A stretch of DNA of 64,000 bases from positions 1 to 64,000 of the IMG/VR virus record IMGVR_UViG_3300028195_000001, one strand, 5' to 3'. How positions within the stretch are numbered: the first letter of the stretch is position 1; every line of letters starts with the position of its first letter. Below the pieces are notes generated by a model that ran no database searches, was not told the DNA's origin, and worked only from the letters and a program-made list of their open reading frames with translations. The position numbers and the translations under genes were made by a program. Below, one piece after another: positions 1-38,190 of the stretch. The DNA is from a virus.

Positions 1-225
1 TGTTGCGGTTGCTACATCCATAGGTGCATTGATACTACCTGGAACTGCGGTAGGTTGCAACCCCAAAGCTGTTGCGGTTGCTACATCCATAGGTGCATTG
101 ATACTACCTGGAACTGCGGTAGGTTGTAACCCCAAAGCTGTTGCGGTTGCTACATCCATAGGTGCATTGATACTACCGGGAACTGCGGTAGGCTGTAACC
201 CCGTAGCTGTTGCGGTTGCTACACT
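1..225. repeat. 69-bp tandem repeat, 3 full copies plus a partial one; may continue left of the window
   Basis: Units at 1-69, 70-138 and 139-207 are near-identical (tgttgcggttgctacatccataggtgcattgatactacc.ggaactgcggtagg.tg.aacccc...gc), and a fourth starts at 208. On the minus strand each unit encodes TAVPGSINAPMDVATATALGLQP. Confidence 0.9.
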
Positions 226-6100: not shown

Positions 6101-6301
6101 ACGACTACACCATACATGGTCATTGCGCCATACTAGACGGTCATCCCCAACAAAGGTAATGTCATTAACAGTCCACACATCCCCGTCTGTAACATCGGGA
6201 GAACAAAAAGGACAGGGTGATCTAAATAATCTGTCACCTTGTCCTTCTTCTACTTCCGGGAAATAGGAAGTTAAATCGTGCAGCGATCTGATAACGCTCA
6301 T
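3122..6301 (-). CDS. DNA primase (zinc ribbon + TOPRIM) fused to a P-loop NTPase/helicase domain
   Basis: 1059 aa. N-terminal CPFC..CSRC zinc ribbon. TOPRIM signature LLTEGEKDSVTLWDAG ... WVLGDNDEPGETF (E and DxD). Walker A LLLRPGPGAGKTHTL and Walker B LVVVDESP in the C-terminal half. Confidence 0.85.
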   Translation of the reverse strand: MSVIRSLHDLTSYFPEVEEGQGDRLFRSPCPFCSPDVTDGDVWTVNDITFVGDDRLVWRNDHVWCSRCYNEGRKHRHTYPELLQYLESAGLSFDVEPSFYDIQPSVISDRPIQFWSEWDVIQAHMQVQRDYWYQFGWSDETINHFKLGLSSYRGQLANVIPTYVRTATETGDWWYPTFRHETWKGSVSLSGSRRDYFWLIQDNPDDDLILLTEGEKDSVTLWDAGYRNIASSFGASSWSYHKTQALYDAGFKRIWVLGDNDEPGETFNTNVSGWAKDIGFEEVKAIQWGDLPSKYDLTDIYVALGTGIISFLEDSVKTLDVAPLSPAPLKSEFIPDYTAIKSDHVPETVDPIPLQEIRGEGTRSLRHRIVRFLDEYDSKTVRGRGVMLLLRPGPGAGKTHTLVRVAERMAREAYADKLVERTDLEQQIENLGEEISTGEWVDTDERDLMIDQKRKMKDRLDNFSFTSIMWVSPFRVAYEDVMEAGANPNLWFNFKARDIENCQNFPMAQRLGANNHNVGKFCEIACPFKGACVKAGYLSQNETRKEKPITVFRHQSLVKGSLANDYKNLVVVDESPFHVLEDPMVCEAREMYPHRDGWELDVEQVTLDAIEQLITSLRLVMNTNVGQNDMISGAGFLKILDSQMQEKLAETIDLISSNDLHTYYQPEYLGDDPDQVLPRCVPFVYDAIKLEIASYVADPENKLPSRIHLVSGKLEVYPMAKVRISSNTPVIAANATGMMEELYEAMFGRTVEVFQPVINNPNATTTVFHGSDWTLSTIEQQIGKELRERQRRIEYPILDIKGQELDLSTLPVKDKLYDAPIIKDARDVVKVLAERHPELLVVTHKRIVGVLKELFEEAYPDAAARLHWGHYGSLRGTNKFKDVPAAVMIGLPRMPYNVMWRRIQAWGSLLELDEPIPYEMSYLPSPYHTKNAGHTHYTFTHPFARKFADDYEIGEMIQCQERIRPHATNEEKHVYVFASRPAGNFVDEIKTKRAALDFYRGESKASRVKDFMIATWNETNDVPRRKDILSKFSCGTSMYTKAKKEAERELGVTFPTKRR

Positions 6302-6344
6302 GCTTAACCTGTCCAGTTTGTAAGATGCGTGTGGGAGTGCTATT

Positions 6345-6373: not shown

Positions 6374-6420
6374 GATAGAGTTATCATTAGAAGGTTAATT
6401 AGAAGTTGTTCTCAGGGATT

Positions 6421-6449
6421 AAAAAGCCCTGCATGTTACACAGGGCTTT
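6421..6449 (-). terminator. rho-independent terminator after 6475..7680
   Basis: Stem AAAGCCCTG/CAGGGCTTT (6423-6431 / 6441-6449) with a 9-nt loop. On the minus strand it is followed by TTTTT (6421-6425). It lies 26 nt past the stop. Confidence 0.7.
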
Positions 6450-6474
6450 TATGTTATCGAGTGTTACGGCTGAA

Positions 6475-7871: not shown

Positions 7872-8254
7872 TAGACTATCCTCCGTAGAATATGGTGGCC
7901 TACACAGCCAATTAACCACTCGAAAGTTCGAGTGGAATATACTAAGTCAAACTTATCATGCTTTGCCCACACCGGGTACAGTTCTTTAACTGCTTCTTCT
8001 GTCACAGGGATAGAAACGTTAGACCATTTAGCATCATCTTCGTCAAACGGGAAGAACTTCTTCTCTATGGTTTGTCTAACAAACTTATCGAAATGCTCTG
8101 TAGTAATATCAGGAGCTAAGTCCATCGCATGTAGACTGTCAATGAAAGGTGACAGAACAGGGTCGTGGAACGTTAGGTACGGTGGAAGTTCCCCCGTTTT
8201 AGGTACTCGATACAGTGTGCAGTAGGTACTCATTCTTTGTTCTCCTTCAACCAC
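7871..8254 (-). CDS. hypothetical protein
   Basis: 127-aa track ORF. No motif. Confidence 0.5.
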   Translation of the reverse strand: MVEGEQRMSTYCTLYRVPKTGELPPYLTFHDPVLSPFIDSLHAMDLAPDITTEHFDKFVRQTIEKKFFPFDEDDAKWSNVSIPVTEEAVKELYPVWAKHDKFDLVYSTRTFEWLIGCVGHHILRRIV

Positions 8255-8415: not shown

Positions 8416-8785
8416 TAGAGTTTTCCTCCCAGGGTTTGAACCAACCATCTCCGTAACGACGCTTAGGTACTTCCTCCGGTATCATAACACGTTTGATAAT
8501 ATCGTGAATACGACCATACGTGTTATGACTTTTCATAAGGCTCATACGGACACCGCCCCAGAACAAGCTACGCATCTGAACAGTGTCTTGCGGTATACCA
8601 CGATCTTCCACAAATTTTTTCCAGTACGTATGTACGTCATTCGTGCCGACTTCCAAGAACCAAGTCTCTGTGACATGCGTGGCGACTTCTGCACGCACCT
8701 TCCACCACAGACAGTCGCTAGCAGGGCAAAGGATGTCTGTCGTTCCCCACAAACGAATGCGTTCTGCATCGGGGATATTAGCCAT
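8405..8785 (-). CDS. hypothetical protein
   Basis: 126-aa track ORF. SD AAGGAG lies 8 nt upstream of ATG 8783-8785. Confidence 0.55.
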   Translation of the reverse strand: MANIPDAERIRLWGTTDILCPASDCLWWKVRAEVATHVTETWFLEVGTNDVHTYWKKFVEDRGIPQDTVQMRSLFWGGVRMSLMKSHNTYGRIHDIIKRVMIPEEVPKRRYGDGWFKPWEENSNAR

Positions 8786-8802: not shown

Positions 8803-8847
8803 ATGGTACTGATTTACTATAATATATATATAGCAAATCAGTACCAT
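8803..8847. repeat. 45-bp palindromic element (13-bp perfect arms around a (TA)n core), copy 1
   Basis: atggtactgattt (8803-8815) / aaatcagtaccat (8835-8847) flank actataatatatatatagc. An almost identical element in the same + strand orientation lies at 33692-33739. Confidence 0.9.
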
Positions 8848-14843: not shown

Positions 14844-16640
14844 CTAGTCATTTTCCATGTGGGAGCATTGGTTTTCCCACAGGACTTTATAAGCGTCCAA
14901 CATACCCCTGTCGGCAACATCTAAGAAACATTTCAGACACATACCTGTTTGAACGAATGCTTCCAGCTGGTCGCCCTCAATTTTCACAACGTCTATTTTC
15001 CCTTCCTTGCAGTACCAACACTGGGTACGTCCTGGGAAACGTTGTCCTTCTATCCATACAGAGGAGGGTTCTCCGTCTGTTAAAAGAGGCGGGAACTTAG
15101 GTACAACCGTAGGTACGGTGCTACCTTCAATCTCCTCTTCATCTAGGTCGTAAGGTTCTTCTTCCAGATAGGTGAAGCAACCAGGACAAACGTTGTACAT
15201 TTTATCACCGTGTTCGTATGTTTGTCGTTTGATTCTCAGGGCTAGTTGTTCACAAATATCACAGGTGAAATATAGGTCGTAAGGTTCTCCTTCCAGATAG
15301 GTGAAGCAACCAGGACAAACGTTGTACGTTTTATCACCGTGTTCGTATGCTTGTCGTTTGATTCTCAGGGCTAGTTGTTCACAAATATCACAGGTGAAAT
15401 AGTTTTGCTGGTCATCGTCCAGAACATCTCGTGTCCAACGTTCATCTCCATTTGCATCTTTGATTAACACGCCTCCGTCCATCATCCACTGAAGGTCGTC
15501 TAATGCAAAGTCCGCTCTTTGTCCCTTGCATTGATCGCAGACAGCAAAGCCTCTAACGTATGTTGCATCATCCTCCCAAATAGTGTGGTTACACTGGCTA
15601 CAAATAGTCGCCATGTGTCCGGTAGCTTTGTGTAGGTAGATGACAGAAGAGTTGCCATCAGAGGTTTGTGTCCACTTCTCATATAACTTCTTGTTGTTCA
15701 TCCACAAGAAGTTATTAGGTCGGAATGCTTCAGCAGATGAACCTGCATCATGACCATGCCGTAGGGTTTGGTTGTAGGAAAACCCACGAATGTTCTCGTA
15801 AGATGATGTGTGATACAAGTTTTCATCACCCCATTGATCGTCATTCCAAGCATAGGCATATCGAGAAGTTTGGGGCATCGGTGTGTAAACCATCTCTGTA
15901 TCGTGCCACAAATCGTGGAAGTGAACGAAACGTGCCACCTGATTTAGCAACTCGTTAACGATAGCGTAGGCATCAGCATTATGATACCGATAGTACCCTA
16001 CAGCAACGTTGAACCCAAGTACCCCCAGTTGCTCTAACGAAACGATGTCGGTATAACTACCCCAGGCAGGAACGAAACCGGATTCAGCTAAACGTTCATG
16101 AAAATCCGCATCGTCGTACTGATACGTTTTAGCATCACTATCACCAGTACAATCGAATTCAACCATCCAATTGTAATGATCGGCTGGTAAACCATGCACA
16201 GCAGGGTCAAAGTAACGTGCGGTGCTACGTCCTGATTCTTCCCCTGTTGTAAGCAAGATGTCCGGCGGGTTTTTCATAATCTTGGATAACAAATCCATGA
16301 CTATGTATACCCCCAAGCGATCATCGAGTTGACCGTTGTAGATAGTTTCTTCATGTGTGTAACGTTCAGCACAGAAGGGCGAGACACCGAAATGGTTAGT
16401 ACGTTCATACTGTTGTACACTGTCCATGTGGGCTACAGCCAACACTTTGCTACCACGTTTGAGATACCCATACTGTTGACCGTCCGGGGTATCCACAACT
16501 TGCATGTGCTTCATCTGCTTCAGCAACCATTCTTCTGGTTTCAGGCAGATGTCCTCCATACGTTCATAGTCCAGAAACTTGTACAGAGGATGGTACTTCG
16601 GGTGATACTTTTTGATGTGTGTATAGAGGGGGTGCTTCAT
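14844..16640 (-). CDS. M28/M42-like metallopeptidase-fold N-terminal domain fused to multiple zinc-ribbon modules
   Basis: 598 aa. Metal-ligand-like series VAHMDSV, QLDDRLGVY, TTGEESG, YRYHNADAY. The C-terminal half has CSQC..CDQC, two copies of CDIC..CPGC (129-bp tandem duplication) and CWYC..CLKC. Confidence 0.45.
   Translation of the reverse strand: MKHPLYTHIKKYHPKYHPLYKFLDYERMEDICLKPEEWLLKQMKHMQVVDTPDGQQYGYLKRGSKVLAVAHMDSVQQYERTNHFGVSPFCAERYTHEETIYNGQLDDRLGVYIVMDLLSKIMKNPPDILLTTGEESGRSTARYFDPAVHGLPADHYNWMVEFDCTGDSDAKTYQYDDADFHERLAESGFVPAWGSYTDIVSLEQLGVLGFNVAVGYYRYHNADAYAIVNELLNQVARFVHFHDLWHDTEMVYTPMPQTSRYAYAWNDDQWGDENLYHTSSYENIRGFSYNQTLRHGHDAGSSAEAFRPNNFLWMNNKKLYEKWTQTSDGNSSVIYLHKATGHMATICSQCNHTIWEDDATYVRGFAVCDQCKGQRADFALDDLQWMMDGGVLIKDANGDERWTRDVLDDDQQNYFTCDICEQLALRIKRQAYEHGDKTYNVCPGCFTYLEGEPYDLYFTCDICEQLALRIKRQTYEHGDKMYNVCPGCFTYLEEEPYDLDEEEIEGSTVPTVVPKFPPLLTDGEPSSVWIEGQRFPGRTQCWYCKEGKIDVVKIEGDQLEAFVQTGMCLKCFLDVADRGMLDAYKVLWENQCSHMEND
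15145..15402. repeat. 129-bp tandem duplication (2 copies, about 3-4 mismatches) inside 14844..16640
   Basis: 15145-15273 and 15274-15402 are near-identical. Each encodes the 43-aa module YFTCDICEQLALRIKRQ.YEHGDK.YNVCPGCFTYLE.EPYDL. Confidence 0.9.
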
Positions 16641-26519: not shown

Positions 26520-26873
26520 TTACCCCCTCATATTCTGCGGATACCAAACCATTTCGTATTCACCCCACTTAGTAAGGTTGGGTGAAACACGCTCGAAGTG
26601 AGCTTTTTCATACAGGGCTTGAGCAGGAATGTTACTCTGTACCACATGCAAATGCAATGGTTTGTCATAAGCTATTTGTTTAGCTATGTCCAAAACCATT
26701 GTAGCATAACCTAAACGTTGGTACTCAGAGAATATTTCTAATCCGTGTATCCAAATTCTTGAACCTATTTCTGTTAACCCACAACCACCAACGTATTCAC
26801 TGTTATCATATAGTAAAATAACGTAAGTGTATACACAATGATCGTCTTTCACTACGAAATTCATGTTAATCAT
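26520..26873 (-). CDS. GNAT-family N-acetyltransferase (minimal, 117 aa)
   Basis: Acetyl-CoA motif A-like EYQRLGYATMVLDIAK, and AQALYEKAHFERV (A-x-x-L-Y-x-K-x-x-F). Confidence 0.65.
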   Translation of the reverse strand: MINMNFVVKDDHCVYTYVILLYDNSEYVGGCGLTEIGSRIWIHGLEIFSEYQRLGYATMVLDIAKQIAYDKPLHLHVVQSNIPAQALYEKAHFERVSPNLTKWGEYEMVWYPQNMRG

Positions 26874-26875
26874 GA

Positions 26876-27163
26876 TTAGTCCTTAATCATTAACCTTAGA
26901 TTGCGAAAGGTTCTGGTAGTCATACGAAAACCTAGTTTTTTATACAGGGCAATCGCTGTGTAGTTTGTTACCGATACGTGTAGGTGGTAAGGAGGTGGGA
27001 ACACCTCAAATACCTTATTAAGCATAGCCGTAGCTAAACCCTGACGACGATGTTCAGGACGTACATTGATGCTTTCTATGTACGTACAATCGGGTTGGGG
27101 GTCAACGATTGTTAACCCCTTCCCCTGTACCTTGACGATGGTTGCGTTATGCTTGACGTTCAT
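26876..27163 (-). CDS. GNAT-family N-acetyltransferase (minimal, 95 aa)
   Basis: INVRPEHRRQGLATAMLNKV (V-x-P-x-x-R-x-x-G-h-A) and AIALYKKLGFRM. Confidence 0.7.
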   Translation of the reverse strand: MNVKHNATIVKVQGKGLTIVDPQPDCTYIESINVRPEHRRQGLATAMLNKVFEVFPPPYHLHVSVTNYTAIALYKKLGFRMTTRTFRNLRLMIKD

Positions 27164-28241: not shown

Positions 28242-28777
28242 GAGAAGATAACCTCTATGCCATGCTTAGCACAATAATTGTCAAAAGACTGGGTGGACAT
28301 GAACGTTGTAGAATGATGTCCCTCAAAGTAGAATACGACACTACCGTAATCGTCGCGTTTACCTTGTAGTTTACCATAGAACTTACCTTTGTCAACGATA
28401 CCCAATACTCCGACGGTATCACTCGTCCATACCATGCGAACAGGCCAATCGCTCTCAACCATGTTGTCAGGTAAGGGAAAGGTTACGGCTAATGCTAGGT
28501 CGGAGAATAAGTCCCAAGTAAGCTGCGGGATAAGTACCCCGGCTAACCGCATCGTTTCCCAACTCAGTTCGATAACCTTTGCCTCTGCAATGTAGCCTAT
28601 TCCGTGATAGTGGTACATGAATGTACCATCTTCGTTCACGAAGTACAGGAAGGGGTACTCATCTTCAAAATCAGCGTCCCACCCTGTAAGGACAAGGGTA
28701 TGGCTATCTTGGTCAAGGTATGCCCTAACGTATAGCAGGTTATGTGCTTCTGCTTTTCGTAACAGGTGTTCTAACAT
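28238..28777 (-). CDS. hypothetical protein (fused counterpart of the 27532/27906 gene pair)
   Basis: Track ORF 28238..28951. Start moved to MLEHLLRKAE (ATG 28775-28777, AAAGGAAA upstream), because the track N-terminus overlaps 28740..29213. Confidence 0.5.
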   Translation of the reverse strand: MLEHLLRKAEAHNLLYVRAYLDQDSHTLVLTGWDADFEDEYPFLYFVNEDGTFMYHYHGIGYIAEAKVIELSWETMRLAGVLIPQLTWDLFSDLALAVTFPLPDNMVESDWPVRMVWTSDTVGVLGIVDKGKFYGKLQGKRDDYGSVVFYFEGHHSTTFMSTQSFDNYCAKHGIEVIFS

Positions 28778-29213
28778 AACGTTTCCTTTCTTGGTAATCT
28801 TTTTCGCTGGTAAATCCAGCCTTGATACGTAGTTGCATTGCTGTGTGCGAGTAATAATTAGCATCAGCCGCAGCCCGGATGCTACTGTATTGTACACCAT
28901 TCCAGGTACAAGGTATAGACCTATCTCCCCTGTCTGGTACATCTTCATCACAGGTATACCCTGCTTGTATCCTATTCCATAACGTACCCGGTAAAATGCC
29001 TAATGTTATCGCGGCTTGCCGAATACTAGGGTAGGTCACATCATTCCAGGTACATTCGATAGCACTACCGGGCAATCGGGTATCAGCATCACAAACGTAC
29101 CCCCTACGTAGATGACGTTGGAAGGTATGAATATTATACCCATTAGCTTCCGCAGCACCTACTACTGATGGATAGGTTGTACCATTCCAGGTACATAGTT
29201 TAGTGTTGGGCAT
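28740..29213 (-). CDS. DNA-binding protein candidate with three tandem NUMOD1/HTH-like repeats
   Basis: Start at ATG 29211-29213 (GGAAGGA upstream). Three units of about 47 aa: CTWNGTTYPSVVGAAEANGYNIHTFQRHLRRGY, CTWNDVTYPSIRQAAITLGILPGTLWNRIQAGY, CTWNGVQYSSIRAAADANYYSHTAMQLRIKAGF. Confidence 0.55.
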   Translation of the reverse strand: MPNTKLCTWNGTTYPSVVGAAEANGYNIHTFQRHLRRGYVCDADTRLPGSAIECTWNDVTYPSIRQAAITLGILPGTLWNRIQAGYTCDEDVPDRGDRSIPCTWNGVQYSSIRAAADANYYSHTAMQLRIKAGFTSEKDYQERKRYVRTPVTKSRST

Positions 29214-29247
29214 GTTATCCTTCCTATAATTGTTACCAGGACAGTAT

Positions 29248-29271
29248 GTACCTAAGCCACCTCTTAGGTAC
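29248..29271 (-). other. hairpin without a U-tract, downstream of the cold-shock-like gene
   Basis: gtacctaag (29248-29256) / cttaggtac (29263-29271), 9-bp stem with a 6-nt loop. Confidence 0.45.
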
Positions 29272-29290
29272 ACACAAGCCCGATGACAAT

Positions 29291-30044: not shown

Positions 30045-30810
30045 AAACAAATTGCACCCAATCCAACGTTTGGACGTTCCAGTGATCGAGAACTTGCAGC
30101 AATCGTTCCGGGTTCAAAGACCGTAACGTATGGCCTTTAGAATTATCCTCTGGATGGTAAAAGCGGGTAGCCTTAATATCGGTATGGTTATCCCGGTCAA
30201 CTAACTCCACACAGGTGAGGATATGCCATTCACCTTCTGCCTCAGCTTCCAGATAACCTTGCCCGGAAAGCTCAGTAACAAAGCGCATCTTCAAAGGGTT
30301 AACAATTGCCGGGTAAAAGACCTTGACCAAATACTCAATATCATCGCGGTAAACCGCCCCGCTGGTGAGCCTTACCAAGTCACTTACAATCTTGTTACGT
30401 TGCCGATTAGCTTCTGCCCAGTGAATGCTTCGGGTCTGCCGGGTTTTCCAGGTATAGTGAACGTCCCAGATCAAGAAAATCGGGTTAAGCTGCCAGGGAA
30501 CGTTTTTATATACCCAGAACGCTTTTTGTAAATCTGAGAAGATACGTTCCAACCAAATCGAGTAATCAATCTTACGATTATGTCGCCAGAACGTATAGCG
30601 TGACTGAACCTGGAAGGCCGGTTGTCCTAACAATTTTCCCACGATCTTAATGACCGTTTCTTCCAGGTGATGCCCAACGTTTGCGACAACGTGACGACAG
30701 TGTTGGTACAGGGGAATGTTGAGAACACGGCCTATAACACCGGAAATAAGCCAGCCTAACAAGCAGTAAAACATAATCCACAACGTGTGATACAGTGTAT
30801 CTTGAGACAT
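30040..30810 (-). CDS. hypothetical membrane-anchored protein (first gene of the leftward arm)
   Basis: Track ORF to 30846 starts at TTG; ATG 30808-30810 (MSQDTLYHTLWIMFYCLLGWLISGVIG) is preferred. One N-terminal TM segment. Confidence 0.5.
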   Translation of the reverse strand: MSQDTLYHTLWIMFYCLLGWLISGVIGRVLNIPLYQHCRHVVANVGHHLEETVIKIVGKLLGQPAFQVQSRYTFWRHNRKIDYSIWLERIFSDLQKAFWVYKNVPWQLNPIFLIWDVHYTWKTRQTRSIHWAEANRQRNKIVSDLVRLTSGAVYRDDIEYLVKVFYPAIVNPLKMRFVTELSGQGYLEAEAEGEWHILTCVELVDRDNHTDIKATRFYHPEDNSKGHTLRSLNPERLLQVLDHWNVQTLDWVQFVW

Positions 30811-31040
30811 TATATTACCTTTCTGCTCCGCAGAGCAATTAGACAAGGTTTTTTATACTTTTTTTCCCTGTGTATACAGGGAGGTTAAATTACCTTGTCA
30901 GGGATACCTGATTAGAGAGTGGTTACAGCGTTACAACAGTGTTGGTACAGCGTAGGTACGGTGTGAAAACAAAGTAACCATGTTTATAACTGGTAACGTT
31001 GTCATTACAGGCAAAAGGTCAGACTCGCTCTCCACCCACA

Positions 31041-31069
31041 ATTTTACTACGATTCCTATCAAAATGCAA
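31041..31069 (-). promoter_or_regulatory. candidate leftward promoter at the left edge of the iterons (TTGCAT-N17-TAAAAT)
   Basis: Minus strand: TTGCAT 31064-31069, 17-nt spacer, TAAAAT 31041-31046. The -35 is weak. Confidence 0.3.
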
Positions 31070-31073
31070 GTTT

Positions 31074-31297
31074 TTTCACGTTTTGCAAGAAATTTCACGT
31101 TTTTTGACTAAAAACCCTAAAATTTCACGTTTTTTCCCAGAAATTTCATGAATTTTCACGTTTTTTCCCAGAAATTTCACGTTTTTTCATGGATTCATGA
31201 ATAATGTATATTTCACGAATTCTCCCCAAAACCCCATTTTTTTCTCTTTTTTTTCCGCACGATTTTTTTTCCTCAAAAATTCACGTTCTTTTTCACG
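31074..31297 (+). repeat. iteron array: nine same-orientation TT(T)CACG(T/A)T-rich repeats
   Basis: tttcacg at 31074, 31093, 31123, 31154, 31175, 31211 and 31291, plus variants at 31255 and 31280. Most are followed by T5-8. A 30/31-bp unit cacgttttttcccagaaatttca is nested twice. Confidence 0.85.
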
Positions 31298-31559
31298 ATT
31301 TTTTTCCTCCCACTGTGGAGTGTAACGTTGGCTGTAACGTTTGGGTCTTGACTACACGAAAAGCTATTAACGATGTACATACTAGAACAGATGGGCTACC
31401 CAGGGGCGGATTCTTGACTATAGGAAAAATGACCTGGAAAACGTGTAATAGACTATAGACATAGTAATTACAGTGTACTATTACATACCTATGCTATATA
31501 TGCATATAGGGGTTACATGAAGTGTAGGACAATTTGTGGGGTTTTGCCCTACTCAACTC

Positions 31560-31587
31560 AGTATACGGAATCGCTGAATCTTGTCAA
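31560..31587 (-). promoter_or_regulatory. leftward sigma70-type promoter (TTGACA-N16-TATACT) with no ORF downstream
   Basis: Minus strand: TTGACA 31582-31587, 16-nt spacer, TATACT 31560-31565. It points at the iterons, about 250 nt away. Confidence 0.5.
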
Positions 31588-31734
31588 GTTTTTGACTCTT
31601 TGGCTGAGTCCGCCAGGTGGACGCTTTTGTGCATGTTGCACAAATTGACTAATTCCGCCTTGAGTAAAAAAAAAGCCGCTATTGTGCAAAATGTACGAAT
31701 CGTGGGAATCTTAAAAATTGGTCGCTCAAAACGC

Positions 31735-31764
31735 TTGACTCGGTTTCAAATTTCATGGTATAGT
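31735..31764 (+). promoter_or_regulatory. rightward promoter (TTGACT-N18-TGgTATAGT)
   Basis: TTGACT 31735-31740, 18-nt spacer, TATAGT 31759-31764, preceded by TGG. Confidence 0.5.
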
Positions 31765-31807
31765 GTTATCAATGACCGAGAAACATCAAACAAAAACAGA
31801 GGATAAA

Positions 31808-31993
31808 ATGACCAACTTATCAGCAATCGCAATCGCAATCACTTTCGCAATCGGAATGATTACACTTAATGTACTAGGCGTAATCGGATATATTCAGCAA
31901 GTTAACACAATTGAACAATTGTTAGCGGCTAACGGGTTAATCGCAATCACTTTCGCAACCGTTGTCATCTCCACCATTATCCGCAATCGTTAA
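31808..31993 (+). CDS. small two-TM membrane protein
   Basis: Start moved to MTNLSAIAIAITFAIGMITLNVLGVIGYI (GAGGA 5 nt upstream). A second hydrophobic run is GLIAITFATVVISTII. Confidence 0.55.
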   Translation: MTNLSAIAIAITFAIGMITLNVLGVIGYIQQVNTIEQLLAANGLIAITFATVVISTIIRNR

Positions 31994-32214
31994 TAGTTTA
32001 ACGGTAGGGTTAACCCCTACTTACTACTGGCAAGCGAAAGTTTGCCGATAGTGACTAGAGATTAATCTAGGCGCAACTTAACAATTGAATATAGAGCGAG
32101 TATACCGGGAACATAGACCATTGTATACCGCCATAGTACCCACTAAAAACCCCTAAAATCCTCTTAAGCGTGAATCGCCAGACAAGCGCTTAAATCTAAG
32201 TGATAGGTGAACAC

Positions 32215-33369
32215 ATGCTAACATTTATAGGTTGGTCAATAGCAGTATTGATTATAGGCCAACTAGCGCTAGAACTAGCCGTAATAATCACCATAGCGCT
32301 ATTGGCAAGGGATATACTAGGAATCGCCGCTAAACTATTGTTAAGTGCGATTATGGCAGTACCATACAGGGCAATAGGTGGCTCTATTGTAAAGCGTAGC
32401 AAGCGAGTTGTAACATCAATTCTAAGCAAGTCTAAACGTACAAAGGACTATCTAATGGCTAAGTATAAAGCGCAAAAATTGACTCACAACGCGGACTCAA
32501 TTCTGAAATTGTTGTATGCCTCAGAAATTGAAATTGTACGTGTACTCTATAGTGCTAGCAAGTTAGGGCATATCAGGAAAGTAAACAACGCCGTTAGTGG
32601 CGAAAAACCCAACTTCATCAGTGTAACAGGCGAAAATACAGAAGCCTGTATGTTAACATCGTCTAACATGGTAGCAAAAACCGCTATACGGGTTATCGAC
32701 TGGCTAGAGGATAACAAGTATACAAAATCGGAAGTATTATTGGCATTAGAAAAACTGCAAACGGCTTATGCAGAGACTCCGGAATCTGAACGTTATAGCC
32801 GGTTTGCTTACAGCTATAAAGCGCGAGTCGACTCAGGGCAACCGAAAGCATTAAACGTTAAGACCCTGTTAATCGAATTGCAAATTATCGCGCCTGTTAA
32901 AATATTCGAATCTGTACCGGGGAAGGTTGGCGCAAGTGTACCAGCAAGCGCGGACTCAGTAGTGTTCAAAGGTTCTAAGGCCAACTACACGGTAAACGGA
33001 CTCACCGTTACCTATGACGCATGGAACATTACAGACAAGGGGTATAAGTTTCGTACCACTGACAAGCGCGTTAAAACCACTTCAAAAGGTTATGAGTGGG
33101 TTGGTAAAACATTCTCAGCAAGTGACGGTACAGTATACCGTGTGATAGAAGTATTCTATAGTGGGTTGCATCTTCTATGTGAAATAGTCTCACATGCACC
33201 TAACACCAGTGTAGCGGGCAAGGTTATGCCTTACACGGATAAAGCGCAAGTTACAGCGGACTCACAAGACTTGGCAGCACAAGTTAAAGACTTAGCGCAA
33301 GGGTTAGCACAGACTCAATTGATGCTAGTCAATGTGCTTAAGGCTAACGGCATAGACATGCCTAGCTAG
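32215..33369 (+). CDS. hypothetical membrane-anchored protein
   Basis: Track ORF 32200 starts at GTG; ATG 32215 follows AGGTGA. The N-terminal roughly 60 aa are hydrophobic (2-3 TM). No other motif. Confidence 0.55.
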   Translation: MLTFIGWSIAVLIIGQLALELAVIITIALLARDILGIAAKLLLSAIMAVPYRAIGGSIVKRSKRVVTSILSKSKRTKDYLMAKYKAQKLTHNADSILKLLYASEIEIVRVLYSASKLGHIRKVNNAVSGEKPNFISVTGENTEACMLTSSNMVAKTAIRVIDWLEDNKYTKSEVLLALEKLQTAYAETPESERYSRFAYSYKARVDSGQPKALNVKTLLIELQIIAPVKIFESVPGKVGASVPASADSVVFKGSKANYTVNGLTVTYDAWNITDKGYKFRTTDKRVKTTSKGYEWVGKTFSASDGTVYRVIEVFYSGLHLLCEIVSHAPNTSVAGKVMPYTDKAQVTADSQDLAAQVKDLAQGLAQTQLMLVNVLKANGIDMPS

Positions 33370-33400
33370 TACACACACATAGCACGCTTCGCATAGTCAA

Positions 33401-33420
33401 TACACTGTAAGTACAGTGTA
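33401..33420. repeat. 20-bp palindrome TACACTGTA-AG-TACAGTGTA
   Basis: 9-bp perfect arms (33401-33409 / 33412-33420) with a 2-bp centre. Geometry is operator-like. Confidence 0.7.
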
Positions 33421-33431
33421 ACGTAGTATGA

Positions 33432-33470
33432 AACCTAGCAACGTTAGATAGATTGTAACGTTGCTAGGTT
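33432..33470 (+). terminator. terminator-like hairpin after 32215..33369
   Basis: 15-bp perfect stem aacctagcaacgtta / taacgttgctaggtt with a 9-nt loop, followed by the T-rich attgctttgc. Confidence 0.45.
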
Positions 33471-33545
33471 ATTGCTTTGCTATACATTATAACATCATAA
33501 TATATTAATACTATATGATATACTATTACATTGTAATAACATTGT

Positions 33546-33611
33546 AGTTAGGCTTACCTAAAAATTATGTTAGTTTGTACCAACGTTGTGAGTTAGGTTA
33601 AGCTAAAAATT
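33546..33611 (+). repeat. two 21-bp direct repeats AGTTAGG.T.A..CTAAAAATT, 45 bp apart
   Basis: 33546-33566 and 33591-33611 match at 18/21 positions. Each contains an internal TTAG(G)..(C)CTAA dyad. Confidence 0.7.
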
Positions 33612-33691
33612 CCGAAAGGTTAGTCTAAAGCTCAGTTTGACCCCCTCACCGTATTTGTAAAAAATTTAGGGAAAGTGACATTTTTGAGGCC

Positions 33692-33739
33692 TATGGTACT
33701 GATTGTCTATATATATATATATAGCAAATCAGTACCATA
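33692..33739. repeat. 45-bp palindromic element, copy 2
   Basis: tatggtactgatt (33692-33704) / aatcagtaccata (33727-33739) flank gtctatatatatatatatagca. Near-identical to 8803-8847. Confidence 0.9.
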
Positions 33740-33819
33740 AGGGGTTTTCCTGTCACTTTGCCTGTTTTCCCACTGTATGCTAGCACAAAGTCACTTCCAA
33801 AGTATCACAAATGAAGCCT

Positions 33820-33832
33820 ATGGTACTGATTT
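33820..33832 (+). repeat. isolated left arm (half-site) of the palindromic element
   Basis: atggtactgattt follows agcct, as in copy 2 (aggcct). No right arm is present. Confidence 0.7.
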
Positions 33833-33864
33833 ATATAAATTTCAAAAATAAATGACAAAAACCC

Positions 33865-33893
33865 TTGACATTCATGACATATTATGGTACACT
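33865..33893 (+). promoter_or_regulatory. sigma70-type promoter (TTGACA-N17-TGgTACACT) at the head of the rightward arm
   Basis: TTGACA 33865-33870, 17-nt spacer, TACACT 33888-33893, preceded by TGG. A GTCACTT site lies at about +20. Confidence 0.6.
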
Positions 33894-33938
33894 TTAAGGG
33901 AGTTAAAACAATGTCACTTAGGGAGTAAATAGAAACTA

Positions 33939-34157
33939 ATGTCATTACTAACTGAAAAAGAGCAGGTCGCGATTCAAGCGCTAGTTACGGCCTGGAACGC
34001 TTTTTGCGAATTAGAACAAATACACACACCCGACACCGTAGCCTTTGCCCGACAAATTGATGCCTGTCATAGCATCATTATGTCCCGCCCAGTTATGCGT
34101 GAATTGAACTTACAGGTTAAGTGTCCAAATGCAACCAACCCTAATCCGGCCCAGTGA
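33939..34157 (+). CDS. hypothetical protein
   Basis: 72-aa track ORF. Confidence 0.5.
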   Translation: MSLLTEKEQVAIQALVTAWNAFCELEQIHTPDTVAFARQIDACHSIIMSRPVMRELNLQVKCPNATNPNPAQ

Positions 34158-34461
34158 TTTCAAGAATTACGTTGACAGATGGGGTAAGAACGAGATAATC
34201 GCATGGTTTAACGAGATTTACGTCATAACAGAGGTACTACGACCTGGATTGAGGTCAGAAGGCTTATATGACCTGTTTAGCTTCACTGACAGGATAGCTA
34301 CAGTCAATAATGACTTCTCCATCACCATCGAAGCCTACGATGAAGCTAAAATGCGTCAACAATGTCTCGACATCGTAAATAAACTGGGTGGACGCTGCCT
34401 GATAATCGCCCTACAAGACTTGAAAGCTGAGTTAGATTGGCAGGAGCAAGAAAATGGATAG
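34129..34461 (+). CDS. hypothetical protein
   Basis: 110-aa track ORF overlapping the upstream gene by 29 nt. Confidence 0.5.
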   Translation: MQPTLIRPSDFKNYVDRWGKNEIIAWFNEIYVITEVLRPGLRSEGLYDLFSFTDRIATVNNDFSITIEAYDEAKMRQQCLDIVNKLGGRCLIIALQDLKAELDWQEQENG

Positions 34462-34476
34462 AACGGAGGACGAGGA

Positions 34477-34701
34477 ATGAAACTAGGCTATCAACCCTAT
34501 TGGATACTTCTCAAGAAACTGGCCACCCTCTATGTGGGTTCAGCTACTCTCATGCTGGTAGGTCAATGGACGCTGGAAACTCTACGGGATAACCCGATTG
34601 GTTGGGTCATCTTTCTGTTAGTCTTACTTGTTATGGCAGGTCGTTTAGCAAATCAGGAGATGGATTATGATAACACGCCCAAATCTACGCCGGAAGTATA
34701 A
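34477..34701 (+). CDS. small membrane protein
   Basis: 74 aa. GGAGGACGAGGA lies upstream. Hydrophobic runs are LATLYVGSATLMLVGQW and IGWVIFLLVLLVMAG. Confidence 0.55.
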   Translation: MKLGYQPYWILLKKLATLYVGSATLMLVGQWTLETLRDNPIGWVIFLLVLLVMAGRLANQEMDYDNTPKSTPEV

Positions 34702-35139: not shown

Positions 35140-35456
35140 AGAAACAAGCACAGATGCAGATGCAGAAACAACCGGTGAAAAAGATACGGAAAACGAAAGA
35201 TCGACTTGACTTATACTACGTAACATTACTTTGTGGTATTATGGCGGCAAAAGCAGGGTATACAGTTGATCTAGTCGGTGAGCGCTTTGGCGCAACTACC
35301 ATTATTGAAACACCAACACATGGTACATTCAAACTGCATGTACCAGCAATTGAATTCAAAGAACGTGATTTAGACATTACGCATAAAGCTATTCGAGCTT
35401 TTGCTAAAGATATTGTCGAGGAGTACGAGAAAAATGGCCAGGAACAGTCTCAATGA
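35136..35456 (+). CDS. hypothetical protein
   Basis: 106-aa track ORF. Confidence 0.55.
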   Translation: MKKQAQMQMQKQPVKKIRKTKDRLDLYYVTLLCGIMAAKAGYTVDLVGERFGATTIIETPTHGTFKLHVPAIEFKERDLDITHKAIRAFAKDIVEEYEKNGQEQSQ

Positions 35457-35856
35457 TAGTGACTATCAGAACGAAGCTACCAAGAAAGATTTGGAGCTAG
35501 TCGGTCACGCGCCAGTGTCAGTCTTTGATAAAGCTACCTGGAAATGTATTCGCTGCGGTAAGATCATGTCTAAATCATACCGGGCGGTCAAGTATGGTAA
35601 GTATGGATGCCGCTGCCAGTCAATGTACAAGCAACTTCCGGCAGAAGATTACCACACACTGGCAAAAGAACTCGGTATCGAGTGGGTGGGAGAAGAAGCC
35701 CCGGAACACCACCGCGCTTACACATCCTGGAAGGGTAAGACCGGCCTAGAAACCGTCCTCCCCTACAGCTTACTCAAGAAGGGTGAGATTAGCCATATTA
35801 CCAAGATGATATTAGGACTAGAAGATGACTATGCCCAGTCTACAGGAACTTCATAA
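35434..35856 (+). CDS. zinc-ribbon protein
   Basis: Start moved to MARNSLND (GAGGAG upstream). WKCIRCGKIMSKSYRAVKYGKYGCRCQ carries CxxC..CxC. Confidence 0.5.
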   Translation: MARNSLNDSDYQNEATKKDLELVGHAPVSVFDKATWKCIRCGKIMSKSYRAVKYGKYGCRCQSMYKQLPAEDYHTLAKELGIEWVGEEAPEHHRAYTSWKGKTGLETVLPYSLLKKGEISHITKMILGLEDDYAQSTGTS

Positions 35857-36079
35857 TCCTCTAAGCGGTATGAACGATTGGGAGAAGCTACAGCTGCTCC
35901 GATTCTGTCGTAACCAAACGGTTGACCCCCGCGCTTTGTCCCTCTTGGAAGCGAAAGGCTTAATCGGGCCGCAGAAAAAGGGCGGGTACGTAGCTACCGT
36001 AATGGGGGGTATTGCCTATAATCAGTTGATGGAAAAGAGGCGTGATGCCAAGAAAAAAGAAGGAAATAGCGATAGCTGA
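35825..36079 (+). CDS. hypothetical protein
   Basis: 84-aa track ORF. The start is uncertain. Confidence 0.45.
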   Translation: MTMPSLQELHNPLSGMNDWEKLQLLRFCRNQTVDPRALSLLEAKGLIGPQKKGGYVATVMGGIAYNQLMEKRRDAKKKEGNSDS

Positions 36080-36653
36080 TGATCTAGTAGATGGTATACA
36101 GAGGCGTGAGGTTCTAAGATTGTATCTATCTGCAACACCTTTTGAAGAGATAGTTGAAAAAACTCAATTAGCACCCAAAACTATTAAAGCAGTTCTTAAA
36201 GAAGTTGAAAGTAATCTTAACTACGATATGGCTTCCCTGGCGGAGCGTATCACTCTTCTAAACTTAGCTCGTACTCAAGAACTCGTCTCTGTTGTTATGC
36301 CGTTGGCTTTGGAGGTTGATCTCAAAGCCATGCGTATTCTGCTGGATATTATTAAGCTGCAACAGAATATTGCTGAAGGCGTTAAACCCAAAGAAGAACT
36401 TAATAGCAAAGTTAATATCCATATTGAGAAGTTTGAGCAGACCCTTACCAGCACTAACCCACTGTATGCTATTGCGCAAGAGAACATGGAACATGAATGG
36501 TTAGGTCAGGCAGAACGGAGTATTGATGAGATTTACAATACTCCCGTTTTAGAAGCTCCGGCTCAACTTGATGACGAAATATTAGATTTTGCAACTAAAA
36601 TAGAACAAGAGTATGGTGATGAACTCGAAGCTATCCCCGCCGACGACGATTGA
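36045..36653 (+). CDS. terminase small subunit candidate
   Basis: It lies immediately upstream of and overlaps TerL. The N-terminus is basic with an HTH-like LRLYLSATPFEEIVEKTQLAPKTIKAVL. The call rests on position and architecture only. Confidence 0.45.
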   Translation: MPRKKKEIAIADDLVDGIQRREVLRLYLSATPFEEIVEKTQLAPKTIKAVLKEVESNLNYDMASLAERITLLNLARTQELVSVVMPLALEVDLKAMRILLDIIKLQQNIAEGVKPKEELNSKVNIHIEKFEQTLTSTNPLYAIAQENMEHEWLGQAERSIDEIYNTPVLEAPAQLDDEILDFATKIEQEYGDELEAIPADDD

Positions 36654-38190
36654 CGAGACTCCTCCGCTGATAGATCATCGGACGGGAGAGCCTAGAAAGA
36701 AACGTTACGTAACAATGAGTACCGCTGAGAAGTGGTGGATTGAGCAATCTCGCCTCTACCCTCATCGGTTTATTCAGTATGTCACCGGCCTAGAACCTGC
36801 TGAACACCATAAGATTTGGTTGGCGAATATCTTCGACTTCAAGCCAGAGAACGAGAAGTTCCGCTTGCAGTTCGTCGCACCGAGAGAGTCGGCCAAGACA
36901 ACAATAATGGTGTACTCTCTAGTGTGGTTCATTGCCCGTTTCCCCTGGATGTCTAATGCCATCATCTCTGTATCAGCGAAACAGGCTGAAGCTCGTCAGT
37001 CAATGATACGAGATATTATCAAACACGATCAACGTTTCCAAAACGTCTTCCCCTGGATTAAGGTGGATGAAAGACAACGTAATACTGTCAATGAGTTCTC
37101 TGTTTACGCAGAGGCTCTCTTTGATTCTAAATCTGGTGTTGCCACCCCCGTTCATTATAGTAAATGGCGGGGTATTCTCCAACGCTTGGGTTCACTGAAA
37201 GACCCTACTATGTTCAGTACCGGCGCAGGTGGCAAGGGTGTAATTGGACGACGTATCTCAGGGCTAATGATGCTGGATGATATTGTAGATGAGAGCCATT
37301 TGAAAGAAAACCTCCAACGGGATATGTACGACTATATCATGCGGACGCTTACTCCCTGTTTACAAGAAAATGCTAAGTGTATTAATATCGGCACGCGCTG
37401 GATGATCGGAGATGTCCCATCTCAGTTAATGGAGAACCCGGCGTGGCACACTTTAGAAATACAAGCTATCCGAGCAGATGAGAACGGGGTAGAGAAATCT
37501 TACTGGCCTGAATACTGGCCTATGGAGAAGCTCAACGCGAAACGCATCGAAGTCGGGCCTATAATGTTTAATGTAATGTATCAAAATGACCCGCAGGCTC
37601 TTGCTTCGGCTATGTTCTCACCCGACAAGCTACAAACGAAGCTCCCTAACCCTCTGCCGGAACTTGCAGGTATCATCATCGGTTGTGATCTGGCATTGTC
37701 CATCAAACAGGACGCAGACTTCACTGTGTTCGCCGCTGTCGGCTACGATAACAGCCAGAATCTATATGTTTTGGATATGCACCGGATTAAGACTACGCCC
37801 GACAAAGTAATTGAGGAGTTAGGCTATTTCGCTAACATGGTGCATGACCAATACGGGAAGCTGAACAAGCTCCTTATCGAAAAGGTCGCTTTCCAGTCTG
37901 CTTATCGTTATGCTCTGGTAGAGAAGTTCCCCTACCTTCCGGCTGACGAACTTCGTCCCATCGGTGATAAAGGCCATCGGGCTGACATCATGGCACGTAA
38001 GGTTAATAGCGGACAAATGTTCTTTAACACAGATAACCCGGTACACAAGCAGCTTATTACAGAATGTCTTAACTTTCCGTTGTATGGACATGATGACACT
38101 ATTGACGCTATTACTCTGGTACTCCAATACTTAGGTATGTCAGCAAGCAGCGCTTCCGTCCGCAGAATTAAGTCCAATTATCTTATGTAG
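36613..38190 (+). CDS. terL: terminase large subunit
   Basis: Walker A-like VAPRESAKTT, Walker B LMMLDDIVDE, and nuclease-domain Asp motifs IIGCDLALS and GHDDTIDAITL. 525 aa. The exact start is uncertain (36613, 36619 or 36715). Confidence 0.85.
   Translation: MVMNSKLSPPTTIDETPPLIDHRTGEPRKKRYVTMSTAEKWWIEQSRLYPHRFIQYVTGLEPAEHHKIWLANIFDFKPENEKFRLQFVAPRESAKTTIMVYSLVWFIARFPWMSNAIISVSAKQAEARQSMIRDIIKHDQRFQNVFPWIKVDERQRNTVNEFSVYAEALFDSKSGVATPVHYSKWRGILQRLGSLKDPTMFSTGAGGKGVIGRRISGLMMLDDIVDESHLKENLQRDMYDYIMRTLTPCLQENAKCINIGTRWMIGDVPSQLMENPAWHTLEIQAIRADENGVEKSYWPEYWPMEKLNAKRIEVGPIMFNVMYQNDPQALASAMFSPDKLQTKLPNPLPELAGIIIGCDLALSIKQDADFTVFAAVGYDNSQNLYVLDMHRIKTTPDKVIEELGYFANMVHDQYGKLNKLLIEKVAFQSAYRYALVEKFPYLPADELRPIGDKGHRADIMARKVNSGQMFFNTDNPVHKQLITECLNFPLYGHDDTIDAITLVLQYLGMSASSASVRRIKSNYLM

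Follow-up and report, generated by a model that had tools for sequence, protein, structure and literature searches.

Why would a tailed phage carry the same long palindrome at two loci that are read in opposite directions, and leave half of it beside a promoter? The question is raised by a stretch of 64,000 nucleotides (positions 1 to 64,000 of IMG/VR record IMGVR_UViG_3300028195_000001; hereafter the window), which belongs to the tightly packed genome of a novel tailed phage. The phage's contig measures ~82.5 kb, and ~18 kb of it lies outside the window; every window scan reported here covers 64 kb only. Isolated phages offered no DNA match to the window, and its terminase is at most 26% identical to that of any isolate. 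The initial annotation, made from the letters alone, described a palindromic element between positions 33,692 and 33,832 with a second full copy elsewhere, and listed roles for it that ranged from terminator to mobile insert, without deciding among them. Comparison with uncultured relatives points to a narrower answer: judged by its sequence and distribution, the palindrome most likely serves as a symmetric platform on which a DNA-binding protein of the phage docks, either to control transcription or to initiate replication, and its TA centre would be flexible or able to melt.

Two palindromes and a lone arm in the window

The first full copy, PAL-A (TATGGTACTGATT-gtctatatatatatatatagca-AATCAGTACCATA, 33692-33739), has perfect 13-bp arms around a 22-bp (TA)n core. 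The second, PAL-B (ATGGTACTGATTT-actataatatatatatagc-AAATCAGTACCAT, 8803-8847), has arms identical to those of PAL-A over 13 nt and a 19-bp TA core, and a lone arm, ATGGTACTGATTT, stands without a partner at 33820-33832. Over 13 nt, the window's five arms do not differ from one another. An exact search for the 12-mer ATGGTACTGATT gave five matches, always within PAL-A, PAL-B or the lone arm, while simple arithmetic predicts ~0.008 exact matches to a random 12-mer in 2 x 64 kb. When the two full copies were folded as DNA hairpins and compared with shuffled sequences, they scored z = -6.9 and -8.2, and none of 200 shuffles was as good. Sequence reading, the 12-mer count and folding therefore all bear out the repeated palindrome of 45-48 bp, with 13-bp arms, a (TA)n centre and an orphan half-site, that had been described at the outset, and the open reading frame (ORF) map confirmed that the two loci are transcribed in opposite directions. 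The accompanying statement that both copies share one orientation fared less well, since direct alignment gave 93.6% identity versus 91.7% for the reverse.

BLAST comparison of the PAL-A and PAL-B loci restricted their similarity to the 46-48 bp palindrome alone, with unrelated flanks. PAL-A and PAL-B have the same right half, TATATAGCAAATCAGTACCAT, and each of them deviates at the junction of left arm and core; the element looks like a once-perfect palindrome of ~46 bp. On either strand the window's arms follow Watson-Crick pairing throughout, without G-U pairs, which is also true of all arms found in this work.

Related phages have their own palindromes at the same position

Relatives were collected in a terminase search that returned uncultured loci at 42-65% identity, and these loci were scanned for inverted repeats with AT-rich loops. 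An element was counted if its arms were at least 12 bp long and its loop was 10-25 nt, at least 80% A+T and contained TATA or ATAT. This arm-and-loop criterion was used instead of a strict gap-free scan (at least 20 of 23 pairs), which recovered 4 elements only, most copies having small asymmetries. The close relatives contained 7 elements in 242 kb, versus 0 in 589 kb of loci with distant terminases.

Six related phages, whose terminases are 42-57% identical to that of the window, each have a TA-centred palindrome of their own that measures 43-49 bp, an extended copy in L008 excepted. The elements are TTCGTTCCCGGTTAC-atatattatatata-GTAACCGGGAACGAA in L010 (terminase 57%; 6412-6455), GTTACAAAACTTCTAT-aatatatatata-ATAGAAGTTTTGTAAC in L073 (46%; 8676-8719) and GCACCTATATCACCTA-ttatattatat-TAGGTGATATAGGTGC in L074 (42%; 5958-6000). 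L008 (= L071; 56%) has TATGGTCTCGAA and TTCGAGACCATA on either side of a 23-nt AT core, in two copies of which one has 33-bp perfect arms; L178 (51%; 2747-2795) has AGATTCTAAAA and TTTTAGAATCT around a 27-nt core; and in L179 (50%; 8085-8132) the element is imperfect, with GATTCTAGGCTCTATATA and TATATAGACGGTAGAATC separated by 12 nt. No element was detectable in the more distant relatives L015 (44%) and L016 (41%).

In each relative, one copy is placed in non-coding sequence ahead of the rightward operon. In those cases where a strong sigma70-like promoter was legible downstream of the palindrome, the gap between palindrome and -35 hexamer is ~29 nt for L008 copy 1, 54 nt in L073, 73 nt in L179, 125 nt in the window, 138 nt in L178 and 207 nt for L008 copy 2. 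Arms are identical within each genome and unrelated between most genomes, with partial sharing of TATGGT by the window and L008 and of GATTCTA by L178 and L179. This combination of identity within a genome and lack of relationship between genomes indicates a recognition site that co-evolves with a factor encoded by the same genome. Proteins encoded next to the palindrome (cassette proteins of 258-389 aa) are not homologous between genomes, except for L178 with L179, and the idea of a conserved enzyme beside the palindrome was rejected on that ground.

Copy number ranges from 1 to 3 among the genomes. An IMG/VR scan with arm sequences found three full copies in the L073 genome, with identical 16-bp arms and different TA cores, as well as two copies in L071 and one in L074. 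Copies 2 and 3 of L073 are part of a common 99-bp unit present in opposite orientation, each 11 nt after a stop codon, and they bracket ~18 kb that contains the primase and a protein homologous to the 415-aa protein of the window. The two L008 copies are embedded in an inverted duplication of ~300 bp, each duplicate facing an outward operon. The L008 palindrome, including its core, is 100% identical over 55 bp while the flanks of the duplication are ~80% identical, an outcome with an arithmetical chance of ~5e-6 under neutral divergence; therefore selection or conversion acts on the palindrome itself.

Half-sites were found beside promoters in two genomes, at 33820-33832 in the window and at 8170-8184 in L010. 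The L010 half-site, GTAACCGGGTACGAA, has 1 mismatch in 15 (chance ~0.001) and lies just upstream of the TGaTATAAT extended -10 promoter of the main operon. In L179 symmetry is limited to the outer (GATTCTA) and inner (TCTATATA) segments of each arm, the 3 bp between them being asymmetric.

Some further features were noted at these loci. The duplicated module of L008 (3690-3990 and 8000-8300) combines promoter-like sequence and the TA-core palindrome with a further palindrome, of the CATATGTAAACATATATG type, on the upstream side, and its two copies flank a 4.3-kb segment of small genes. In L074, G-rich repeats (GGGGCTGGGG / CCCCAGCCCC, in both orientations) occupy 6170-6310, ~200 bp from the palindrome. 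The end of the leftward region of L010 (positions 1-738; NCBI assembly GCA_040959605.1) holds a gene with MtrA-like and DUF4346 pterin-binding domains, which may be an auxiliary metabolic gene or host flank.

Architecture of the PAL-A control region and the PAL-B gene junction

A non-coding stretch of 569 bp precedes the rightward terminase/structural operon and contains PAL-A. The end of PAL-A lies 125 nt before the -35 hexamer of a sigma70-like rightward promoter (33865-33893, + strand), which consists of TTGACA (33865-33870), a 17-nt spacer and TACACT, with TG preceding the -10. The lone arm ends 32 nt upstream of the same hexamer, a correction of the 33 nt given in the initial annotation.

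The arms around this promoter are parts of a larger arrangement. A second motif, box1 (AAAGTGACA), starts exactly 20 bp ahead of the left arm of PAL-A (33672-33680, + strand) and recurs at a 20-bp offset from the right arm (33751-33759, - strand), and the two box1 copies form an outer inverted repeat whose 11-nt spacers on the two sides are not complementary. The lone arm is the box2 (TATGGTACTGATTT, 33819-33832) of a half-site module, A' (33799-33832, + strand), in which it follows a degenerate box1 (AAAGTATCACA) and a 9-nt spacer; A' is a direct repeat of 33672-33704 (33 nt, 79% identical). Three modules are thereby defined, A (33672-33704), B (33727-33760, other strand) and A', in all of which box1, degenerate in A', stands 20 bp before box2 (TATGGTACTGATT) and the spacers are neither conserved nor complementary. 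A partial box2, the 8-mer TATGGTAC (33883-33890, + strand), overlaps the -10 region of the rightward promoter; it is oriented like the lone arm and the left arm, from which it is separated by 64 and 191 bp, respectively. The spacings between same-orientation box2 sites, 127 and 64 bp, correspond to 12.1 and 6.1 helical turns. Of 12 occurrences of the box1 core AAGTGAC in the window, 4 fall into the 250 bp between 33673 and 33919; extra cores are found on the - strand at 33790-33796 and, in the leader of the first rightward gene, at 33913-33919. Constant box spacing, free spacers, half-sites at promoters and the partial symmetry of L179 are together easier to reconcile with a protein contacting duplex DNA than with base pairing.

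PAL-B occupies a different setting, where it fills the 66-bp gap between two leftward genes, 4 nt past the stop codon of a 218-aa ORF and 17 nt ahead of the ATG of a 126-aa ORF. It lies within the early operon, ~2.5 kb upstream of the primase gene. Subtracting PAL-B leaves a gene junction of 21 nt, a typical tight spacing.

Other repeats were observed near the PAL-A region. Two hairpins (33401-33420 and 33432-33470), neither with a clear U-tract, directly follow a 389-aa ORF and precede PAL-A, and one of them has 15-bp perfect arms containing AACGTT (AACCTAGCAACGTTA/TAACGTTGCTAGGTT). Both are taken to be terminators of a rightward two-gene cassette that encodes a 76-aa membrane protein and the 389-aa protein. 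Further left, ~8 direct repeats of TTTCACGTTTTTT form an iteron array in T-rich non-coding DNA (31069-31306), 2.4 kb from PAL-A and between the leftward operon and the first rightward promoter, which is a classical-looking candidate for an origin or a multi-operator region.

A proposed symmetric docking site with a regulatory role

From this pattern we infer that protein binds the arms, that the binder is encoded by the phage, that binding regulates transcription with one sign or the other, and that the TA centre may bend, untwist or open. Each 13-bp arm would be the recognition site of a sequence-specific DNA-binding protein made by the phage, and the full palindrome would seat two protomers head-to-head on duplex DNA with their centres ~33-35 bp apart, the alternating-TA centre acting as a flexible, easily untwisted and cruciform-prone hinge. 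In the region that controls the terminase/structural operon, PAL-A would be the anchor operator, bound with high affinity. Its partners would be the lone arm (at ~-74) and the partial site that covers the -10, all three presumably on one face of the helix, and jointly they would set the activity of the rightward promoter, probably through cooperative binding or looping. PAL-B may be a second operator, or a roadblock to elongation, bound by the same protein ahead of the replication genes. We put forward such a regulatory role, as operator or roadblock, tentatively and as a real possibility that falls short of an even chance.

Several observations weigh against it. No DNA-binding regulator was identified, Pfam and PHROGs being nearly empty across the early genes. 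A plain operator needs neither an alternating-TA centre, nor near-perfect palindromy through that centre, nor the 33-bp arms of L008. The distance from palindrome to -35 varies from ~27 to 207 nt across genomes, so that there is no constant activator or repressor geometry. The copies inside operons (PAL-B, L116 and L139) all lie 4-11 nt after a stop codon, a placement more typical of hairpins at the 3' ends of transcripts. The helical phasing and the promoter overlap were noticed post hoc and are suggestive only, and the lone arm in the window, which has 7 nt of flank in common with the left arm, may be a simple local duplication.

The closest precedent, by analogy, is the set of operator and stoperator sites of Cluster A mycobacteriophages, which are 13-14 bp long, identical within a genome and different between related phages (PMC9283540, PMC6550527). 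Like the palindromes described here, stoperators are found both at a major promoter and within operons, where they occupy short gaps between genes, and a single asymmetric site can function by itself, which would give the lone arm a rationale (PMC9283540, PMC6550527). The present phages match that pattern in having identical short sites at the major promoter and inside operons, with a sequence that differs between related phages. Stoperators differ in being single asymmetric sites that are present many times per genome and act in lysogeny (PMC9283540, PMC6550527), whereas the sites in the window are paired head-to-head around a long (TA)n and number only 2.5 per 64 kb. Also unlike Cluster A, no repressor homologue or integrase was found among the window ORFs scanned, which were all coding-strand ORFs of at least 200 aa except six in the rightward structural region. 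A literature search for multi-copy perfect palindromes in phage genomes returned no direct precedent. Promoter-stem-loop (PeSL) cassettes of T4-type phages are repeated intergenic modules of a stem-loop and a promoter that are duplicated within the genome, and the ~300-bp duplicated module of palindrome and promoter in L008 resembles them; PeSLs differ in that they are numerous, lie in hyperplastic regions and have short stems, and are not TA-centred palindromes of 45 bp.

Alternative explanations

Elements at the same position in relatives, with genome-specific arms, and half-sites beside promoters support those of the initially proposed roles that involve a protein spanning about three helical turns, an operator or a replication signal, and the description of a cruciform-prone sequence also stands, whereas the evidence speaks against the intrinsic terminator, the pac or cos site and the miniature mobile insert. 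A palindromic origin or primase-loading site, with inverted initiator-binding arms on either side of a (TA)n element where the DNA would unwind by melting or by extrusion of hairpins, is somewhat unlikely but deserves serious attention. The 1059-aa primase (or primase-helicase) or another initiator would load at the palindrome, and extra copies would be secondary origins or priming signals. An origin would explain several features better than an operator does: the alternating-TA centre, kept in every genome despite different arms; palindromy through the centre, with arms of up to 33 bp in L008; the three iterons (AAATCTACAA) that adjoin the L073 palindrome directly upstream; and the ties of extra copies to the replication module, with PAL-B 2.5 kb upstream of the primase gene and L073 copies 2 and 3 bracketing the primase region. 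The conserved copy also sits at the divergence of leftward and rightward genes, where cumulative GC skew turns, but this turn coincides with the switch in gene orientation and is not independent of it. The eight iterons TTTCACGTTTTTT at 31069-31306 are a better classical origin candidate 2.4 kb away, the conserved copy adjoins the structural operon ~25 kb from the primase gene, half-sites on or near promoter elements suit regulation better, and no helicase or origin-binding domain was recognised in the primase beyond its Toprim/primase N-terminus. In the OriS and OriL origins of herpes simplex virus (HSV), inverted protein-binding boxes enclose an AT-rich stretch that is bent and melted, and one arm is able to pair with a third box; the inverted boxes, AT spacer and third box of the window mirror OriS (PMC12543377). 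Both HSV origins and the phage elements lie between divergent promoters and occur in more than one copy per genome, but HSV is a eukaryotic virus that uses a superfamily 2 (SF2) origin-binding helicase, of which no homologue was detected in this phage, and HSV Box 3 is adjacent whereas the third arm of the phage is 80 bp away (PMC12543377). A herpesvirus-style symmetric origin in a tailed phage is a speculative and somewhat unlikely model, in which the primase-helicase of the phage, or another initiator, would be brought in head-to-head by the private arms, the (TA)n would melt or extrude twin hairpins for bidirectional synthesis, secondary copies would flank the replication module, and arms and initiator would co-evolve. 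The ssiA and ssiB sites in the oriV of plasmid RSF1010 are sequence-specific hairpins on both strands that are recognised by the plasmid's own primase near iterons and an AT-rich stretch; they differ from the phage palindromes in being two separate hairpins of ~40 nt in a plasmid replicon with an unrelated primase family. Function at the RNA level, as a transcribed stem-loop that acts as an attenuator, a terminator without a U-tract, an RNase III site or a 3'-end stabiliser between modules, is improbable. It would account for the three intra-operon copies 4-11 nt past the upstream stop codon (joint chance ~0.005, a rough estimate), for the way in which PAL-B and a ribosome-binding site occupy the entire intergenic gap, and for the inverted L073 copies 2 and 3, a palindrome being orientation-independent, and the stem is long enough for RNase III. 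The universal copy, however, lies upstream of promoters in divergent non-coding DNA with no obvious transcript to process, and an RNA stem would require neither identical arms across copies nor lone half-sites. The arms contain no G-U pairs and have no Rfam match; over 30500-34500 Rfam returned only ssnA at 32787-32823, outside the palindrome and below the gathering score (E = 0.26). No U-tract follows any copy read, on either strand: PAL-A is followed by AAGGGGTTTTCC and AGGCCTCAAAAA and PAL-B by TTATCTAAG and AAAAAGGAG, the relatives likewise have no T-runs, and a terminator scan called neither PAL-A nor PAL-B. An intrinsic terminator, a G+C-rich stem with a short loop and a U-run directly behind it, was rejected, as no copy read has such a run.

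A selfish or neutral palindromic cassette without a dedicated function, spreading by recombination, template switching or a trans-acting transposase while hairpin-templated repair keeps its arms perfect, appears slightly more improbable still. The repeat unit in the window does end exactly at the palindrome edge, removal of PAL-B would restore the tight 21-nt gene junction, copy number varies from 1 to 3 among genomes, and in L008 copy 2 one flank has become symmetrised, which extended the arms to 33 bp. Opposing this, one copy is conserved in position across phages with terminases 42-57% identical, and the L008 palindrome is conserved above its flanks; the copies read have no target-site duplications, and the scanned window ORFs include no transposase or recombinase. 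An exact-pattern scan for the full palindrome gave zero matches in IMG/VR and the JGI metagenomes, and in 185,579 reference genomes (GTDB) the sole match, in a Clostridium metagenome-assembled genome, was dismissed as a chance stem, an ordinary terminator with a T-run and no TA core. For a miniature mobile insert of the kind initially suggested, a miniature inverted-repeat transposable element (MITE), the lack of target-site duplications, the 1-3 copies per genome, the absence of copies elsewhere and the duplication of flanks together with the palindrome in L008 all speak against it. A target for site-specific cleaving and joining, either a protelomerase tel site or an inversion or resolution site of a tyrosine or serine recombinase, is very improbable, even though inverted copies flank 4.3 kb in L008 and ~18 kb in the L073 genome. 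We take the 13-bp arms and third arm to recall FRT; a loxP/FRT-type core site, with inverted arms of ~11-13 bp, is not a good match, for the arm length fits but the spacing of 19-22 bp is far from the 6-8 bp of recombinase cores, and no recombinase was detected among the scanned window ORFs. The L008 repeats, ~80% identical outside the palindrome, are not being homogenised by inversion. Among protelomerase targets, PY54 pal is a 42-bp perfect palindrome and N15 telRL measures 56 bp; their anatomy comprises near-perfect palindromy, an alternating purine-pyrimidine centre and inverted repeats on the flanks (PMC3540006). At 43-49 bp, with near-perfect symmetry, an alternating purine-pyrimidine (TA)n centre and outer inverted repeats, the phage palindromes share that anatomy; N15 and PY54, in contrast, have one site per genome beside the protelomerase gene and a centre of TACGCGCGTA rather than (TA)n (PMC3540006). 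The window has two full copies and the L073 genome three, and a protelomerase with 2-3 sites per genome would fragment its substrate. The scanned window ORFs gave no family match to a protelomerase, integrase, resolvase or invertase, and the proteins adjacent to the palindrome are, as noted above, not homologous between genomes. Least probable is a packaging signal (pac or cos) recognised by terminase. PAL-A is upstream of the small and large terminase genes and several short-read contigs of relatives start near this position, but PAL-A is 2.3 kb upstream of the putative small-terminase gene, and 1-3 copies per genome, some inside the early operon, are not the single site near that gene that pac or cos would require, so this candidate too is disfavoured. 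The Logan contig L009 starts within the L008 palindrome, where a 31-mer first extends beyond the 33-bp arm, and at k = 31 an assembly break is expected there from the inverted arms; such contig ends are thus no evidence of physical genome ends. The TA-rich start of L012, 50 nt before its promoter, may be another assembly break. A bidirectional sigma70 promoter within the palindrome was also considered. It fits L073 (GTTACA, 18-nt spacer, TATAAT), but a -35-like hexamer is missing from the arms of L010, L074 and the window, and the idea was rejected as a general explanation.

Gene content and other features of the window

Leftward early and replication genes run from ~30.8 kb down to position 1 and include a primase, a DNA methyltransferase and two GNAT proteins, while rightward genes from 31.8 kb encode the large terminase, a ClpP-like protease and a 2727-aa tape measure. 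These were the only families recognised by Pfam and PHROGs, and among ~60 ORFs of the window and its relatives searched for a regulator, initiator, recombinase or protelomerase none was recognised. The primase (1059 aa, 3122-6301, leftward) has a recognised Toprim/primase N-terminus; the large terminase gene lies at 36613-38190 (rightward), and with the putative small-terminase gene spans 36042-38190. A tRNA search of the window found none. ORF 28740-29273 gave weak helix-turn-helix matches (E = 0.005-0.03, below cut-off), the sole hint of a regulator.

A zinc-ribbon protein of ~135-150 aa (CxxC...CxC) is encoded in the window (35401-35856), L073 (8832-9239), L008 (8725-9132) and L010 (8261-8668), as gene 1 or 2 downstream of palindrome and promoter in several relatives. 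It has no family match, and its sequence makes it a candidate DNA-binding protein. When the 151-aa zinc-ribbon protein and the 218-aa protein encoded next to PAL-B were used to look for homologues, each search recovered the query alone. A search of PDB sequences with the primase and the 151-aa protein gave nothing useful, the primase having no PDB relative by sequence, and the primase as an IMG/VR query yielded no confirmed loci.

The two small GNAT acetyltransferase genes (117 and 95 aa) are neighbours on the - strand of the early region (26520-27163). Tandem repeats comprise a 69-bp unit present 3.2 times at the left edge of the window (1-223) and a 129-bp unit present 2.0 times (97% identical) at 15144-15401, within a 598-aa ORF with a peptidase-like PHROG match. 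The hexamer AACGTT occurs 85 times against ~19 expected (4.4-fold), most densely at 8-32 kb; ~70 occurrences lie in the left half up to ~33.6 kb and 14 beyond, and the flanking bases reveal no extended motif. Fourteen 6-bp palindromes are absent where 7-19 occurrences of each are expected: ACATGT, ACGCGT, AGATCT, CCATGG, CCCGGG, CCGCGG, CCTAGG, CGATCG, CGGCCG, CGTACG, CTCGAG, CTGCAG, GGTACC and GGATCC. This absence amounts to strong restriction-site avoidance and hints at a host rich in restriction systems, and from the avoidance alone we would guess at a cyanobacterial host, possibly filamentous, as an unproven assignment.

Significance

Palindromic operators and origins are well known, and the element described here introduces no new principle. 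What is new is a clade-wide, position-fixed palindrome of ~45 bp with a TA centre, private arms of 12-16 bp and variable copy number, in phages that are otherwise unannotated. If the proposed docking site is real, an uncultured clade of phages of ~75-82 kb would have a compact and recognisable control element in which the arms vary while position, length and TA centre are fixed. Co-variation of the arms would then provide a handle on the cognate DNA-binding protein, and a 45-bp site with private specificity of 13-16 bp could serve as an orthogonal protein-DNA pair. For the phages themselves, specificity groups, whether of immunity or of origin, would become predictable, and the element would help to define the early/late or replication switch in genomes in which >90% of genes are unannotated.

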